A stretch of DNA of 64,000 nucleotides from Methanolinea sp. (GTDB taxonomy: Archaea; Halobacteriota; Methanomicrobia; Methanomicrobiales; Methanospirillaceae): NCBI GenBank assembly GCA_029907345.1, contig JARYMB010000005.1, positions 5,485 to 69,484 on the forward strand. The letters are read 5' to 3'. Both the position numbers and the translations under genes were made by a program. The notes under the pieces were generated by a model. It saw nothing but the letters and a program-made list of their open reading frames with translations, did not search any database and was not told the DNA's origin. Shown here one piece after another: positions 15,731 to 37,433 of the stretch (positions within the stretch are counted from its first letter, which is position 1; every line of letters starts with the position of its first letter).

Positions 15731-15975
15731 TTTTTTTTCTTTTCACTGTTTTGAGGGGGGCAGTGTGACCAGTGGCATCTGCCTTGCCCCCCGCACTCTC
15801 CTCAGGAGATGGTCCCGCCGCCCCTAAAAGGGCGCCCCGGCGGCGCTTTCACCGCAAATTTCGTTTAAACTCGATATCTCTTCTTTGACTTAACCAAGTC
15901 ATAAGTATGGAATGCTGGAAAGCACCCGTGTTTTCACTCACGAAAAATGACGAAGAAGGAAAGATACAAATTTAT

Positions 15976-16244
15976 GGACTCGACGGGATTCGAACCCGTG
16001 ACCTTCTCTTTTTCAGACCGGGGGCTGCCGCCCCTCGACCCCGCAGCGACCTCCCGGTCGCCTCCCTTATCCCAATTCCCTTGAAAAACAGTCCCCATGG
16101 ACTCGACGGGATTCGAACCCGTGGCCTTCTCTTTTTCAGACCGGGGGCTGCCGCCCCTCGACCCCGCAGCGACCTCCCGGTCGCCTCCCATATCCCAATT
16201 CCTTTGAAAAACAGTCCCCATGGACTCTTGAAAAACCGTCCCCA
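15976..16244 (-). repeat. Two tandem 123-nt units plus a 24-nt partial unit; each unit is a conserved double hairpin, a copy of the tRNA-Ala 3' half, and an oligo-T tail
   Basis: Units at 15976-16098 and 16099-16221 are near-identical. Each contains GGACTCGACGGGATTCGAACCCGTG, identical to the 3' end of the adjacent tRNA-Ala gene as written on the + strand. Each also contains hairpins GCGACC-GGGA-GGTCGC and GGGGC-GGCA-GCCCC (minus-strand sense). Confidence 0.85.
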
Positions 16245-16316
16245 TGGACTCGACGGGATTCGAACCCGTGGCCTTCACGTTGCAAACGTGACGATCTACC
16301 CCTGATCTACGAGCCC
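16245..16316 (-). tRNA. tRNA-Ala (UGC)
   Basis: GGGCTCGTAGATCAGGGGTAGATCGTCACGTTTGCAACGTGAAGGCCACGGGTTCGAATCCCGTCGAGTCCA. Has the G3:U70 Ala identity pair, a canonical 72-nt cloverleaf and anticodon loop TTTGCAA. Confidence 0.9.
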
Positions 16317-16430
16317 CGTGCCTGCATGACTGCAGCATTCCATTTTTCTACGGAATCCATATAGTTATTACTGATCGGTGTGACCGGAAGGAAGATGTGG
16401 CAGCACTGCCAATGATTGCCGCGAAAATTC

Positions 16431-16616
16431 ATGGCGCAGCTCATCATTGAACCAAAGAAAGGAAAGGACGGCCAGATCGAGTATATCGTGAACTACCACG
16501 ACAGGAAGAGCGACAATTCGTTTACCATCACCACGACATCAGACCTGAACGAAGCGCTCGAAAAGCTGAAAATGACTCTTGAAGGCGAAGTTCAGGCAAT
16601 GATGCAGAAGAAGTGA
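16431..16616 (+). CDS. Small hypothetical protein (61 aa)
   Basis: MAQLIIEPKKGKDGQIEYIVNYHDRKSDNSFTITTTSDLNEALEKLKMTLEGEVQAMMQKK. Composition is protein-like and no family was recognised. The ORF track starts at TTG 16416. Confidence 0.5.
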   Translation: MAQLIIEPKKGKDGQIEYIVNYHDRKSDNSFTITTTSDLNEALEKLKMTLEGEVQAMMQKK

Positions 16617-16640
16617 TCGCCCGGGGCGGATCACTTTTTT

Positions 16641-16816
16641 CCCGGTCGCCTCCGATACCCCCCTTATCCTCCCCGAAAAACAGTTCCCATGGACCTGGCG
16701 GGATTCGAACCCGCGGCCTTCTCCTTTTCGGACCGGGGGCTGCCGCCCCTCGACCCCGCAGCGACCTCCCGGTCGCCTCCGATACCCCCCTTATCCTCCC
16801 CGAAAAACAGTTCCCA
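16641..16816 (-). repeat. Second locus of the same repeat: one partial (16641-16690) and one full 127-nt unit (16691-16817)
   Basis: It shares the identical core GGAGGCGACCGGGAGGTCGCTGCGGGGTCGAGGGGCGGCAGCCCCCGGTC (minus-strand sense) with locus 1. Its T-arm copy (GCGGG/CCCGC) matches the neighbouring tRNA-Ala(CGC) instead. Confidence 0.85.
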
Positions 16817-16888
16817 TGGACTTGGCGGGATTCGAACCCGCGGCCTTTACGTTGCGAACGTAACGATCTACCCCTGATCTACAAGCCC
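16817..16888 (-). tRNA. tRNA-Ala (CGC)
   Basis: GGGCTTGTAGATCAGGGGTAGATCGTTACGTTCGCAACGTAAAGGCCGCGGGTTCGAATCCCGCCAAGTCCA. G3:U70 is present. Anticodon loop TTCGCAA. Confidence 0.9.
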
Positions 16889-32119: not shown

Positions 32120-32144
32120 CTCCCTTCTCTGACCATTCTTGTAT

Positions 32145-33371
32145 ATGCCTTCCATAGATCAAACACAAAACTATTTTGCCAGCAAGAAACCCGAATACGT
32201 TCATGCAGCGCTCATGAAATCGCTCGCAACCGGTCAGCTGGTCCGTTCAGATGCCGATATCATCACCGAATTTCTGGCCGAACGTAAGTCGGCAGGGGGT
32301 ATCGGATTGAGCCGGACCAACAAAGTTGCTTTCACTTTGATTGGATGGCGTCGGTTTCTGCCTCCTTTCTCCGAGCTTACGATGGGATCTGTCTACACAG
32401 GTATCGAGACACTCAAACACGCCACGAGCAGACATGGGCGACCGTTCAAACAGAACACCATCGCCGACCACGTGGTTATCCTAAAACAGTTCCTGCTCTG
32501 GATGATCGAGAACCAGTACATCAACCTCCCCGAGAAGAAGATCAAGGCCATCAAGAACCCAAGCAAGGACTGGCTGACCAAGACTGCTGCTGACATTCTC
32601 ACTCCGGAGGAGATCCAGAAGATTCTCGATGCCTGCCGGAACTCCCGGGATCGGGCCCTGATCATGACCCTCTACGAAGGAGGATTCCGGGCCGGAGAGG
32701 TTGGGCGGTTGACCTGGGGCGACCTGAAGAATGATTCCAAGGGGATCGCGGTGAATATCGATTTCAAGACTGGTATTCCCCGCTACATCAGGCTGGTCAT
32801 GGCGAAGAGGTATATCGCGGAATGGCGGGCTGATTACCCGCTCATGATTACCCCAGAGTCACCGGTATTTCTGAACATTTACAAGAGACCCCTGACGTGG
32901 GCGGGGATGAGGAAGCAGACCGAGGAGATTGCCAAGAGAGCCGGTATCACCAAACACATCACTCCCCATCTCTTCCGTCATTCGAGAATCACTCACCTGA
33001 TCCAGGAGGGAGCCAAGGAAAGTGTCATCAAGCTCATGATGTGGGGTACGCTGAACACCGATATGTTTGCGACCTATGCCCATCTCTCCGGCAGGGATAT
33101 CGACAGGGAGATTTCCCGGTTGTATGGGCTGGAAGAGGATCCGAACGCAAAAGAACATGCGCGACTCGAACCACGGATATGCCCGGCGTGTAATCTGATT
33201 AATCCGCCCGGTGAAGATTATTGTCGCGGGTGTATGGAAGCTTTATCTGAAGAGGCCATTGCTGATGAAGAATCAATCCGTCGGTTTGTTATAAGTCGCC
33301 CCAGAATGTTTCGTAAATACCTGGACGAAGTTGAGCAAAATAACATTCACTCCACGGTTGAAAAGATTTAA
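32145..33371 (+). CDS. int: Tyrosine recombinase / integrase with C-terminal zinc ribbon
   Basis: Catalytic-domain motifs (RDRALIMTLYEGGFRAGE, HLFRHSRITHLIQEG, FATYAHL) and C-terminal CPACN...CRGC. It lies adjacent to a tRNA gene. The ORF track starts at TTG 32139. Confidence 0.9.
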   Translation: MPSIDQTQNYFASKKPEYVHAALMKSLATGQLVRSDADIITEFLAERKSAGGIGLSRTNKVAFTLIGWRRFLPPFSELTMGSVYTGIETLKHATSRHGRPFKQNTIADHVVILKQFLLWMIENQYINLPEKKIKAIKNPSKDWLTKTAADILTPEEIQKILDACRNSRDRALIMTLYEGGFRAGEVGRLTWGDLKNDSKGIAVNIDFKTGIPRYIRLVMAKRYIAEWRADYPLMITPESPVFLNIYKRPLTWAGMRKQTEEIAKRAGITKHITPHLFRHSRITHLIQEGAKESVIKLMMWGTLNTDMFATYAHLSGRDIDREISRLYGLEEDPNAKEHARLEPRICPACNLINPPGEDYCRGCMEALSEEAIADEESIRRFVISRPRMFRKYLDEVEQNNIHSTVEKI

Positions 33372-34236: not shown

Positions 34237-34423
34237 ACAGGATGACGGCCACATGACGGACCGGAAGATCTGCCCGATCATGTCCGAGCCGCGAGGCATC
34301 GTTCTCTGCCAGGGGAAGAACTGCGCTGCAGCCTACCCTCGGAATCTTAAGGGAGAGGTCCTCTGGTTCTGTGAGCTCATCGAGGGTCATCCGCCCCAGT
34401 CCGGGAGGGATCATGAGCCATGA
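34220..34423 (+). CDS. Small hypothetical protein (67 aa)
   Basis: The ORF overlaps both neighbours (17 nt upstream, 11 nt downstream), which fits the translationally coupled chain. It contains four Cys residues. Confidence 0.4.
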   Translation: MAMWREQDDGHMTDRKICPIMSEPRGIVLCQGKNCAAAYPRNLKGEVLWFCELIEGHPPQSGRDHEP

Positions 34424-37400
34424 AACCCTCCAGGCCGCCAGGGTCCTCTTCGTTCCCGGTCAGGTTGTCGAAGTCCGGGCTATCATTGACGAGGGGATGG
34501 CGAGCGGGTATTTCGATGATCTGGAGAAGCTCGGGGACCAGGTCGATACACTGGATGGCCTGCCCGGGGTGCAGGGGATTTATGTCACCTTAAACGAGGT
34601 GAACCCGGCCCTTCTCTCCCGGCGTGCGAACCGGATCAAGGCCCGGCTTTCGAAGAAGGACGCTACCACGGCTGATACTGATATCATACGCAGGCACTGG
34701 TTCCCGGTAGATGTGGACCCGGCCCGGCCTTCTGGTGTGTCCTCAACTGATGGGGAGCACAAGGCAGCGATCGATACGGCTGCCCGGGTGGCTGATTACC
34801 TGGCCGATCTGGGATGGCCGGCTCCGGTCTTTGCAGATTCGGGGAACGGTGCTCACCTGCTCTACCGGATCGACCTGCCGAACGACGACCGGTCCCGCGA
34901 CCTGGTGAAGCGGTGTCTCGAGGTCCTTGCTGTCATGTTCGATGATGGCATGACCTCGATTGATACGGCGAATCACAACGCTGCCCGGATCTGGAAGCTC
35001 TATGGGACGATGAGCCGGAAGGGGGACAATACCCCCGACCGGCCTCACCGGAGGTCCTGTATCCTGTCGGTTCCTGCCGAGATTGAGGTAGTGCCCGGGG
35101 AGCTCCTAGAAGGGCTGGCATCTGCCCTCCCTGCTGCCTTCCCTGAGCCGGTACCAAAACAGGGTAGGAGTACCGGCCATACCCTGGACCTTGCCTCCTG
35201 GCTCCGGGACCATCGTATTGGGGTCGCCCGGGAGAAGCCTTACCAGGGGGGCATGCTGTATGTCCTGGACGAGTGCCCGTTCTCCGGTGCCCACCGGGAC
35301 GGGGCCTTCGCTATCCAGTTCCCGAGCGGTGCTATCTATGCCGGTTGCCAGCACGCTTCTTGCGGTGGCGGGTCGCAGCGGTGGCCGGAACTCCGGGAGA
35401 AGTTCGAGCCGAAGGCAGGGAGGGCTACAAAGGAACCAGCAGCCCCCACCCCAGGATCCCGGACACGGACGGCTCTACCTCTCTCCCTTGATGAGCTTCC
35501 TGGTCGGGTGGAGGCTCTGGCGGTCCTGAAGCACGGCGACCCGAAACAGGCGATGCTCCGGACCTTTGCCCTGGATCATGAAGGTGACGAGGTAGTAGCC
35601 GAGTGCCTGATCCTCTCCCTGGCCTCCCGTTCGGTCCTCAATACCAACGGCCTGCACGTCTCTGTGACCGGGGAGAGCGGGAAGGGGAAGAGCCATGCCT
35701 TCTCCTCGCAGCTCAGGCAGGTCCCTCCCCGGTTCCGCCTGGAAGGGGCCATGAGCAACAAGGCTCTCTTCTACCTCGAGGATCTGCAGCCGGGATCGGT
35801 GATCGTGCTGGACGACCGGGCCCTCTCCGAGGACATGGCCGAGATCCTGAAGGGAGTGACCACCTCCTTCCGGACCCCGTTCGTGTACCGGACGGTGAGC
35901 AAGGACCGCCGTGCGCAGGTCTGCACTATTCCCGAGCGGTGCATCTGGTGGGTGGCGAAGGTGGAAGGGGTCGGTGATGACCAGGTATTCAACCGGATGC
36001 TCACCTGCTGGATCGATGATACCGAAGAGCAGGATGCCCGGGTGCTTGTCCGTATCCTGGCCCGCGATGTGTCCCTGCCAAACAACCTCGAGGAGGAGCG
36101 GCCCGAGGTGATGGCTTGCCGGGCTATGTGGGAGCTTGTCGGCCAGCAGCGGTTCTACGTGGTGATCCCTTTCGCCACCAGGATCCGGTTCCAGGCGGCA
36201 GCGAACCGCCGGAACCCGGAGATGCTGCTGGACTTGATCAAGGCCAATACGGTCCTGCGGTTTATGCAGCGGAATCAGCAACGAGTGGGGTCTGTGGTTT
36301 CTCTCACTGCTACCAGCGAGGACTTCCTTGAAGCGACCCGGCTCTATGGGTTGCTGAACGGGACGGTTGGGGGCCAGCAGACTAAGCTCACCAAGCGGGA
36401 GTCCGGGCTGCTGGCGATCATTGAGCGGAGCCAGTGGCCGGAGTTCACCATTCCGATGTTGCAGAAGGCCTCGGGGTTGTCGAATGCATCCCTTCACCGG
36501 ATCATCCACGGCTATGCAAGCAGGGGAGCGGTGTATTCCGGTCTCCTGGAGAAGTGCCCTGCCATCGCCTACTGTGACCGCACGGTGGTGACCGATGAAG
36601 AGGAGCGGGGTCTTTCCATGCGGCGGAGGACCAATGCCTACACGTTTGACCCGGATCTCTACCGGTCCTGGTGTGCGGGCGGGGCGGTCTGGCTGGACGA
36701 TGATGATGACCCGGACCATCCTTCAGCACTTCAGCAGTCCTTCAGCAATCCTTCAGCAGTTGCTGAAGGGAATGAAAACGAACCAGGAAGCCCTGATTCT
36801 AGTAATAATAATAAAAATATTTTATTTAGTACTCATTATGAGGTATCCTTCAGCAAGTCCCAGGATACACAGCACCCTGATCGTGATGGGGTGCAGGCTT
36901 CAGCATGTGTGTGTGATCTGAACTCTGCTGAAGGGCAGGATCCGAATTCTTCTCAAACACCACCAATTCCTGAAAAGTTATCGGATTGTGCCGGAATATC
37001 CCTTCAGAAATCCCTTCAGCAGGATGAAGGTTGCTGTAGGAATGACAGTCCGCGCCGGATTAACGCGAGGGACTACAAGTCCCTGGAAGTTCCTGACCAT
37101 GCACCGTGCTCTCTCTGTGGCAGCTCCTGGACTCACTATGTCGAGAAGTTAACCGAGGAACGGAGGAAGCGGCCAAAGGACCAGTGGCAGCCCCGCCAGA
37201 TCTGCAAGCGGTGTTATACGGCTGCAAAGCGGAAGGCACAGGAATCGGCAGTTATCCTTCCCGGGACCTATGACCTAACCCGGCTGGAGCGGCTGAAGTC
37301 CACGGTCGGCCGGTGCACTATCTGCGAGCTCGATTCAGCCGTTTATATCGACCGCAGCACCGGGACGAAGTTCTGCGATGTTTGCTACCAACGGGTATCC

Positions 37401-37433
37401 GGATCTCCTGATCATGGGGAGGTGAGAGGATGA
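34413..37433 (+). CDS. Replication protein: archaeo-eukaryotic primase-polymerase (PrimPol) domain fused to a P-loop NTPase/helicase and C-terminal zinc ribbons
   Basis: AEP motifs WFPVDVD (DxD), SGNGAHLLYR (sGxGxH) and IDTANHNAARIWKLYGT. A Cys/His cluster CPFSGAHRDG...CQHASCGG follows. Walker A GESGKGKS and Walker B VIVLDD are present. The C-terminus has CSLCGS...CKRCY and CTICE...CDVCY. Likely start MSHETLQ at 34413. Confidence 0.85.
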   Translation: MSHETLQAARVLFVPGQVVEVRAIIDEGMASGYFDDLEKLGDQVDTLDGLPGVQGIYVTLNEVNPALLSRRANRIKARLSKKDATTADTDIIRRHWFPVDVDPARPSGVSSTDGEHKAAIDTAARVADYLADLGWPAPVFADSGNGAHLLYRIDLPNDDRSRDLVKRCLEVLAVMFDDGMTSIDTANHNAARIWKLYGTMSRKGDNTPDRPHRRSCILSVPAEIEVVPGELLEGLASALPAAFPEPVPKQGRSTGHTLDLASWLRDHRIGVAREKPYQGGMLYVLDECPFSGAHRDGAFAIQFPSGAIYAGCQHASCGGGSQRWPELREKFEPKAGRATKEPAAPTPGSRTRTALPLSLDELPGRVEALAVLKHGDPKQAMLRTFALDHEGDEVVAECLILSLASRSVLNTNGLHVSVTGESGKGKSHAFSSQLRQVPPRFRLEGAMSNKALFYLEDLQPGSVIVLDDRALSEDMAEILKGVTTSFRTPFVYRTVSKDRRAQVCTIPERCIWWVAKVEGVGDDQVFNRMLTCWIDDTEEQDARVLVRILARDVSLPNNLEEERPEVMACRAMWELVGQQRFYVVIPFATRIRFQAAANRRNPEMLLDLIKANTVLRFMQRNQQRVGSVVSLTATSEDFLEATRLYGLLNGTVGGQQTKLTKRESGLLAIIERSQWPEFTIPMLQKASGLSNASLHRIIHGYASRGAVYSGLLEKCPAIAYCDRTVVTDEEERGLSMRRRTNAYTFDPDLYRSWCAGGAVWLDDDDDPDHPSALQQSFSNPSAVAEGNENEPGSPDSSNNNKNILFSTHYEVSFSKSQDTQHPDRDGVQASACVCDLNSAEGQDPNSSQTPPIPEKLSDCAGISLQKSLQQDEGCCRNDSPRRINARDYKSLEVPDHAPCSLCGSSWTHYVEKLTEERRKRPKDQWQPRQICKRCYTAAKRKAQESAVILPGTYDLTRLERLKSTVGRCTICELDSAVYIDRSTGTKFCDVCYQRVSGSPDHGEVRG

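Follow-up and report, generated by a model that had tools for sequence, protein, structure and literature searches.

Short tandem units bearing a conserved pair of hairpins lie behind both tRNA-Ala genes of a 64,000-nucleotide (nt) stretch of Methanolinea sp. DNA (GenBank assembly GCA_029907345.1, contig JARYMB010000005.1, positions 5,485 to 69,484 of the forward strand), the whole of which we call the window. What is repeated there seems to be a miniature DNA insertion of an undescribed kind, and not a tRNA or what is left of a large virus or plasmid. We lean towards reading the units as gene-less integrative cassettes, amplified by unequal recombination between the gene-tail repeats that they carry. 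The units share one anatomy, a covarying double-hairpin core joined to a copy of the 3' end of the gene behind which it stands; they are spread through the order Methanomicrobiales, they have no linked recombinase gene, and at one protein gene a surrogate and a native tail are arranged around the cores. Our search of the literature found no description of such an element. New here, judging from the sequences, are the apparent entry of the same core into protein genes and the order of surrogate and native tails at one such locus, which points to insertion.

Tandem units behind the two tRNA-Ala genes

A first-pass annotation, made from the sequence alone, had described tandem units behind both tRNA-Ala genes. 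These are real: ARAGORN and Infernal, exact matches to the core and Tandem Repeats Finder (TRF) agree on them, and the coordinates and TRF also confirm the annotated make-up of a 24-nt partial plus two full units behind tRNA-Ala(UGC) (locus 1) and one full plus one partial unit behind tRNA-Ala(CGC) (locus 2). Each unit consists of a short variable trailer, a conserved two-hairpin core of about 56 nt, an A-rich linker and a copy of the 3' end of the gene presumed to have been entered. In the list that follows, X is the block at the end of the intact gene, X' its copy behind a core, and Y the trailer or spacer before a core.

16817-16888, minus strand: tRNA-Ala(CGC), intact (ARAGORN; Infernal 70.4 bits)
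16817-16847, minus strand: upstream repeat X of locus 2, the last 31 nt of tRNA-Ala(CGC)
16781-16816, minus strand: trailer/spacer Y of locus 2, TGGGAACTGTTTTTC..., containing a T5 run (from the sequence; recurs at 16654-16689)
16731-16780, minus strand: core copy of locus 2 (exact match; covariance model R1, 71 bits; covariation)
16721-16730, minus strand: A-rich linker CGAAAAGGAG of locus 2 (the linker pattern YGMAAAAG recurs in relatives)
16690-16720, minus strand: X', copy of the last 31 nt of tRNA-Ala(CGC), with one A>G relative to the gene
16654-16689, minus strand: trailer/spacer Y of locus 2, second copy
16641-16653, minus strand: truncated core, its first 13 nt, GGAGGCGACCGGG, abutting the terminator hairpin of a convergent open reading frame (ORF) of 66 amino acids (aa)
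16245-16316, minus strand: tRNA-Ala(UGC), intact (ARAGORN; Infernal 70.7 bits)
16245-16276, minus strand: upstream repeat X of locus 1, the last 32 nt of tRNA-Ala(UGC)
16204-16244, minus strand: tRNA trailer with a T5 run, then a 24-nt duplicate of the tRNA end plus trailer, GAGTCCATGGGGACTGTTTTTCAA (TRF period 24, 2.0 copies)
16139-16188, minus strand: core copy, full unit 1 of locus 1 (exact match; R1 71.8 bits)
16098-16138, minus strand: linker TGAAAAAGA and a 32-nt X' (16098-16129) identical to the tRNA-Ala(UGC) tail
16098-16165, minus strand: sub-threshold tRNA match (Infernal 23 bits)
16066-16097, minus strand: trailer/spacer Y of locus 1, unit 2
16016-16065, minus strand: core copy, full unit 2 of locus 1 (exact match; R1 71.8 bits)
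15975-16015, minus strand: linker and last X' (15975-16006), with one C>T at a variable-loop position

At locus 1, tRNA-Ala(UGC) is thus followed by the T5 trailer, the 24-nt duplicate and two full 123-nt units, and at locus 2 tRNA-Ala(CGC) is followed by one 127-nt unit and by a second that stops 13 nt into the core. Over the window TRF returned a 123-nt period (2.1 copies, 97% identity) together with the 24-nt duplication at 16204-16251. The annotation's 50-nt core is indeed identical at the two loci, with three exact copies in the window and 0 expected from shuffles, and the T-arm of each tail copy follows that of its neighbouring tRNA, as had been claimed. Between the tRNA-tail repeats of the window lie 92 nt that contain no ORF. 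In the source genome (a 1.86-Mb assembly, 88% complete), tail copies stand at only these two of 45 tRNA genes, and nhmmer found no core in that genome other than those behind tRNA-Ala. We read the last X' of locus 1, with which the array stops at the last base of the tRNA, as the displaced original tRNA tail, and its C>T might fit a displaced tail that is free of selection.

The two tRNA-Ala genes are separated by the 66-aa ORF (16416-16616, plus strand), which converges with tRNA-Ala(CGC) and is followed by a terminator-like hairpin at 16619-16640. The same ORF is kept in the syntenic loci L164 and L090.

A folded core under selection

The core is made up, in order, of hairpin 1, a near-invariant unpaired GGGGTCGA, hairpin 2 and the A-rich linker. 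In the window, hairpin 1 reads GGCGACC-GGGA-GGTCGCT and is followed by GGGGTCGA, by hairpin 2 (GGGGC-GGCA-GCCCC) and by GGTC. Hairpin 1 forms a stem of 6-7 base pairs (bp) around ACC-N3-4-GGT, with the compensatory variants GTGCCC/GGGCAC and GCCACC/GGTGGC, and hairpin 2 is closed by G-C in 19 sequences, by G.U in 15, by A-U in 5 and by A.C in 1. To judge by these exchanges both hairpins are under selection, and wobble pairs are in excess, which points to the sense strand of the gene folding as a single strand, either RNA or single-stranded DNA. The strand bias of the wobbles in hairpin 1 was not used as evidence, since the raw count of 38 GU-type vs 9 AC-type shrinks to about 8 vs 5 independent events. 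A further mini-stem, for which the annotation had proposed a compensatory change between the two loci (TCT/AGA versus TCC/GGA), is not kept in relatives.

Comparison between species bears on which part of the unit matters. Behind the TFS gene, the core is 87-91% identical between species, compared with 65% at synonymous sites and 54-63% in the flanks. X' has decayed beside a persisting core at TFS, at PolB in G107, at the CGC locus of genus g12 and in G044, which argues that the core is the selected part and that the tail copies are by-products. A search of Rfam with the window and 8 related loci gave no family except tRNA above threshold, and membership in a known RNA family was therefore rejected.

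The tRNA-like portion of the units

The annotation was right that the units are not functional tRNAs and wrong about the reason, which was the absence of a 5' acceptor strand. Such a strand exists: the Infernal tRNA model pairs GGGGUCG of the core with CGAGUCC of the tail in an acceptor-like stem that forms 6 of 7 pairs, keeps G3:U70, has A73 and carries a G4.G69 mismatch. The unit scores 23 bits, below the gathering score of 29 bits of RF00005, the anticodon arm is replaced by the A-rich linker, and ARAGORN calls no tRNA on the units of the window. The units do not qualify as functional tRNA genes, and the copies of tRNA halves are by-products, not tRNA genes. Weak Infernal matches to models of transfer-messenger RNA (tmRNA) stem from the same tRNA-like part. 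We also considered split, permuted or intron-bearing tRNAs and rejected them, as both tRNA-Ala genes are intact and the units have no flanks of the bulge-helix-bulge (BHB) type.

In a relative, ARAGORN reports a 68-nt "tRNA-Cys(GCA)" (L023 1521-1588 and L062 2794-2861) that is in fact a hairpin-plus-tail unit. Units of this kind are a likely source of false tRNA annotations in these genomes.

A family dispersed through the Methanomicrobiales

Of the 18 other genomes of the genus, 16 gave a BLAST match to the core, as did six more genera of the family, and both BLAST-negative genomes of the genus hold decayed remnants behind tRNA-Ala. The covariance model R1 of the core matched 48 of the 151 genomes of the order that were sampled; these come from five of six families, with up to 30 copies in a single Methanolinea genome (G036) and with periodic matches spaced by 110-180 nt in many genomes. 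An exact-pattern scan of 185,579 species representatives retrieved records from Methanolinea, Methanoregula, Methanoregulaceae, unclassified Methanomicrobiales and Methanobacteriota, along with chance matches inside ORFs of GC-rich bacteria. On metagenome contigs the arrays reach seven units. Spread over so many loci, the core belongs to a dispersed family and is not a feature of tRNA-Ala.

Many contigs of metagenomes and metagenome-assembled genomes (MAGs) start or end inside arrays (L019, L022, L028, L029, L073, L141, L149 and others). Because arrays break short-read assemblies in this way, unit counts from MAGs are lower bounds.

Cores behind protein genes

The core is always oriented like the gene upstream of it. 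In several genomes it starts at or over the stop codon of a gene for a GT39-like (glycosyltransferase-like) membrane protein, where TGA is followed directly by GGCGACC or TAG by GCGACC; it lies 10-30 nt from the stop of a PolB-like gene and of an M50-like gene and about 50 nt past the TFS stop, and arrays of six to seven units also precede an hps-like gene. At most of these protein-gene sites a stretch of 13-58 nt from the upstream gene is repeated in direct orientation after the linker; behind TFS this copy decays from 22 to 18 to 13 nt and then to traces. The sequence after the TFS copy was tried as a decayed TFS tail, and this was dropped as its alignment scores fell inside the shuffle range. 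Nearest-ORF statistics were likewise set aside, being uninformative in this GC-rich DNA.

What distinguishes insertion from duplication is the order of gene tails at L132, the GT39-like locus of a metagenomic Methanolinea. A unit of 153 nt is present three times; in it a 35-nt block X leads into a tail A (KAGIVPPESSVF, stop), which 30 nt of spacer separate from the core with its linker. The array ends in X followed by a tail B (KAGISSPFVPFT, stop). It is tail B, and not tail A, that looks like the native tails of orthologues (KAGISLPFTPYPTFT and similar), which suggests that the last, displaced copy is the original end of the gene and that the inserted units bring a surrogate end with them. 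Tandem duplication of resident sequence would make an array that ends in a core and would copy the native tail, and cannot give this layout; reciprocal insertion of a unit through X gives exactly this layout. As these sequences read, a surrogate tail in the inserted units with the native tail last marks a Campbell-type insertion, making L132 the decisive locus. The same junction of linker and X (GCG-ATTGA) is found in G066, which is another species.

Array ends, unit numbers and a proposed cycle

At tRNA-Ala, the left end of X differs by lineage, lying at the variable loop in the window and elsewhere at GGCC, at ACGGG or so far to the right that only CGAGTCCA is included. Its right end always falls 0-7 nt past the end of the tRNA, in at least five independent arrays, as in attachment (att) blocks at tRNA genes. 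The number of units varies across relatives from 0 (decayed) to 1, 2, 4 and 7, with 2 and 1.1 at the loci of the window. In L164, which is syntenic with the window, tRNA-Ala(CGC) with two units and the same small ORF are accompanied by tRNA-Ala(UGC) with seven 105-nt units, between which there is no T-run; L134 has four 149-nt units and a terminal core; G026 and G044 retain decayed remnants. The UGC and CGC loci, about 570 nt apart, share derived features (the GTGA loop in L164, related spacers in the window), implying that units have been exchanged within a genome. Dispersed cores share locus-specific features across species.

How might such an element move? We infer the recombination step itself from these layouts. 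In the proposed cycle, the X block of a unit, here the last 31-32 nt of tRNA-Ala, would recombine with the chromosomal X in a Campbell-type event, so that the target gene would be rebuilt with the cassette's tail copy and the original tail moved to the far side of the core. The two copies of X around the core would then permit unequal recombination by which whole units could be gained or lost. Candidate catalysts are a recombinase acting in trans or host homologous recombination, and the hairpins may be the part that is recognised or that promotes recombination, as single-stranded DNA or as RNA of the gene's sense strand.

A wider proposal is more tentative, and we give it less credence than the cassette reading of the units themselves. 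The units might represent the smallest integrative elements, an undescribed class of 100-150 nt without genes, in which a hairpin folded for recognition is joined to nothing but a surrogate for the target's 3' end, with the Methanomicrobiales family as one representative; site-specific entry into tRNA and protein genes would be catalysed in trans by a recombinase of the host or by one yet to be found, and analogous modules with other hairpins might occur in other archaeal lineages. In a less likely variant, the units linked to tRNA-Ala would also yield an alanine-accepting, tRNA-like RNA without an anticodon arm.

The search for a mobilising partner

Several results weigh against gene-less integrative cassettes, most of them from the search for something that could move the units. 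The source genome encodes two tyrosine integrases of 410-420 aa, and tblastn found no homologue of either within about 160 core-bearing loci. The window-type integrase family occurs in 140 of 201 genomes of the family, unrelated to the presence of the core, and in one genus it is found in 53 of 81 genomes and the core, by BLAST, in none. No protein family recurs near cores, 1024 clustered ORFs containing only syntenic neighbours. Together, these searches for an integrase homologue or a recurrent protein covered about 100-160 loci. Screening 19 genomes of the genus returned no Y1 transposase, on which ground mobilisation by IS200/IS605 elements, by REP-associated tyrosine transposases (RAYT; REP, repetitive extragenic palindrome) or by palindrome-associated transposable elements (PATE) was rejected. 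Reverse transcriptase (RVT_1) is present in 1 of the 19, and the tail copies have no CCA; retro-copying of the type seen in diversity-generating retroelements (DGR), retrons or short interspersed nuclear elements (SINE) was rejected on these two counts. Pattern scans of IMG/VR and BLAST against phage and plasmid collections returned no core-bearing virus, plasmid or autonomous relative, so that a viral or plasmid origin was rejected as well, and the core loci from GTDB and metagenomes included no autonomous relative either.

Other difficulties concern the cycle itself. DNA circles of 105-150 bp are stiff and no such circle has been observed, and the cassette reading leaves unexplained how a cassette gains a new target block. 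At TFS, the sequence past X' was not detectably gene tail when alignments were compared with shuffles. Some array junctions lie inside the core, in hairpin 2 (L165, L075), and some arrays end in a core without X' (L134, locus 2 of the window), indicating that plain slippage acts too. The conservation of orthologous cores above the synonymous rate, moreover, suggests a host-level function as readily as mobility.

As a control for what a classical integration looks like, the source genome contains, outside the window at C61:7555-34616, an island of about 27 kb at tRNA-Thr(UGU). Its tyrosine integrase of 420 aa lies directly behind the tRNA and a 16-nt att repeat of the tRNA end, TCACGGCTGGGGCTTT, stands 27 kb away; no core is present at this far end (attR).

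The other tyrosine integrase, of 410 aa and with a C-terminal Cys4 ribbon, is encoded in the window at 32139-33371 (plus strand), next to a 1020-aa PrimPol/P-loop fusion at 34371-37433 (plus strand). This region looks like an integrated element, and neither a tRNA gene nor a convincing flanking direct repeat was found within 26-46 kb.

Alternative explanations

One alternative is a function for the host. The core could be a cis-element, a vertically inherited DNA or RNA hairpin signal at gene ends that provokes slippage and template switching, with tail copies and arrays as passive consequences and no insertion cycle. Conservation of orthologous cores above the synonymous rate is what such an element would show, as are locus-specific features common to dispersed cores across species, array junctions at differing places, some of them within the core (L165, L075), and the lack of any core-linked recombinase. 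We nevertheless consider a host cis-element unlikely, given that the tail order at L132 requires insertion, not duplication. Moreover, presence is patchy per locus within the genus, copy numbers run from 1 to 30 per genome, and the source genome has the core at tRNA-Ala only; the core usually lies past the T-run expected to end the transcript, and in some lineages it has decayed without visible consequence.

A second alternative gives the units a product. The annotation had raised the possibility of a structured small RNA with tRNA-like processing signals, for which the hairpin covariation, being of RNA type, speaks, and the tRNA-like part, which shows no compensatory change and in some lineages decays while the core stays, does not. 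In its fullest form this RNA would join hairpin 1 to a tRNA-like body, with GGGGUCG/CGAGUCC as acceptor stem (G3:U70, A73), hairpin 2 where a tRNA has its D arm, the A-rich linker where it has its anticodon arm, and a genuine T arm. Transcribed together with tRNA-Ala, the RNA would be released by RNase P and tRNase Z, would receive a CCA and might be charged with alanine, and arrays would raise its dose. Units align over their full length to the Infernal tRNA model, forming 6 of 7 acceptor pairs, one relative's unit is called a 68-nt tRNA by ARAGORN, a GGGTTCG variant turns position 4:69 into a U.G pair, a shortened copy in Methanoregula still folds as an acceptor stem plus hairpin, the wobble pairs fall on the sense strand, and the seven units of L164, free of T-runs, would form one transcript. 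Yet 23 bits fall short of the cut-off of 29, no repair of the G4.G69 mismatch to C is ever seen, and the 5' strand is constant while the 3' strand varies (CGAGTCC, CAAGTCC, CGGGTCC). The tRNA-like part has decayed in genus g12, G044 and G026 while the core stays, the same core stands behind protein genes without any tRNA part, a run of T5-T8 separates tRNA and core in most genomes, and no promoter-like box is conserved. Such an RNA is, in our judgement, improbable.

Closest to what we propose among the annotation's suggestions was its idea of integration scars or a duplicated att-like region at tRNA-Ala. That idea needs changing: nothing larger was ever integrated between the repeats, and the inserted object is apparently the hairpin unit of 92-150 nt itself, in protein genes too. 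As a rival explanation, the arrays would be attL/attR scars of large integrase-bearing viruses or plasmids that entered tRNA-Ala repeatedly and whose interiors were deleted, leaving the arm beside attR. In favour, the direct repeats consist of tRNA 3' ends, with the gene completed by the upstream copy; partial tRNA genes left by integrations of 9-23 kb are common in archaea (PMC9897764); and the tRNA-Thr island, with its integrase and 16-nt att, is a classical case in the same genome. Against this, dozens of loci in many genomes have the same 90-150-nt interior without a gene remnant, the core never lies beside an integrase and is absent from IMG/VR and from phage and plasmid collections, and the classical island has no core at its attR. 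As a mark of plain att scars the annotation had named a core that always lies at the termini of known integrated elements; that test does not fit here as worded, since the core was never at the end of any known gene-carrying element. We regard deleted interiors of large elements as very unlikely.

Relation to known systems

The nearest counterparts of the proposed cassettes are integrative elements that duplicate att sites at tRNA genes and the cis-mobilizable elements (CIMEs) that accrete in tandem, reviewed in PMC5704250. In both cases the direct repeats derive from the 3' end of the target gene. The gene is made whole again by the upstream copy, and its original tail is the copy that has been displaced; a surrogate tail comes in with the element, and several elements can stack at one site. 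Like CIMEs, the units have no recombination genes. The differences lie in scale and in kinship. The units measure 92-150 nt instead of kilobases and contain no gene remnant, no autonomous parent or matching integrase was found for the core family, the targets of this single family are several and unrelated, comprising two tRNA-Ala genes and at least four protein genes, and a conserved covarying double hairpin is the sole constant part. Measured against integrase-type att sites, the units thus have the tRNA 3' repeat and the intact upstream gene without a kilobase interior containing an integrase; measured against CIMEs, they have the att flanks, the lack of recombination and transfer genes and the stacking, without a related autonomous element that has the same att and an integrase.

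REP sequences and their paired forms (REPINs), which depend on RAYT, an IS200/IS605-type Y1 transposase, are also short non-coding hairpin repeats that are dispersed at gene ends, sometimes in tandem, and conserved within lineages. REPs, however, insert without a long target repeat; the present units have 8-58 nt of their target repeated, and 19 genomes yielded no Y1. Assignment to REP-type repeats or to miniature inverted-repeat transposable elements (MITEs) was rejected for the same reasons (target repeats varying from 8 to 58 nt, Y1 in 0 of 19) and because the hairpins are internal and not terminal inverted repeats. The attC sites of integrons offer another parallel, namely a folded, strand-specific hairpin that begins from or over the preceding stop codon, and small circular integron cassettes stack in arrays; near the core, however, neither an integron integrase nor an attI platform is present, the genes in front are core host genes and not cassettes, and long target repeats flank the units.

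On the RNA side, the units resemble the tRNA-like domain of tmRNA and alanine-accepting minihelices in combining an acceptor stem with G3:U70 and A73 and a true T arm with the lack of an anticodon arm. They differ in the persistent 4:69 mismatch, the lack of covariation and of a coding part, and a tRNA-like portion that is dispensable in relatives. Archaea are not known to possess tmRNA. A CRISPR (clustered regularly interspaced short palindromic repeats) array was rejected because the segments between cores are the same within an array and not unique spacers; at the Rfam gathering score there was no CRISPR family, the only match, to CRISPR-DR41, scoring 18.5 vs 36 bits and lying outside the units.

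Implications and further repeats

If the units are integrative cassettes, a hairpin and a copy of the target's tail would be enough for site-specific insertion at gene ends, no gene-carrying element being needed, which would define how small integrative elements can be and suggest a recombinase activity yet to be assigned. The units also offer a concrete explanation for orphan tRNA halves that confuse or inflate archaeal tRNA gene calls, and explain the assembly breaks at these loci, while the tRNA-Ala loci of the Methanomicrobiales could serve as fast-changing markers for strain typing. The RNA alternative, an anticodon-less look-alike of tRNA-Ala in multi-copy arrays, would be of wider interest.

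Two other hairpin repeats occur in the neighbourhood of cores. An unrelated GC-rich hairpin repeat lies at 15806-15850 (minus strand) in the window, with its core string, CGCCGCCGGGGCGCCCTTTTAGGGGCGGCGG plus about 12 nt, at 15815-15845; the source genome has at least 25 copies of it. In L035, L049 and L061 the double-hairpin core sits inside the loop of this repeat (CGCCGCCGGGGCGCCCTTTTAGGGGCGGCGG), and in L044 the repeat itself forms three tandem units. Just behind the displaced gene-tail copy of L101 (G066), about 130-330 nt past the GT39-like gene, stand two copies of a third hairpin repeat, GCAGGAGTGGGC-TATAC-GCCCACTCCTGC, which is also found in L085 and appears to have interrupted the displaced tail copy.

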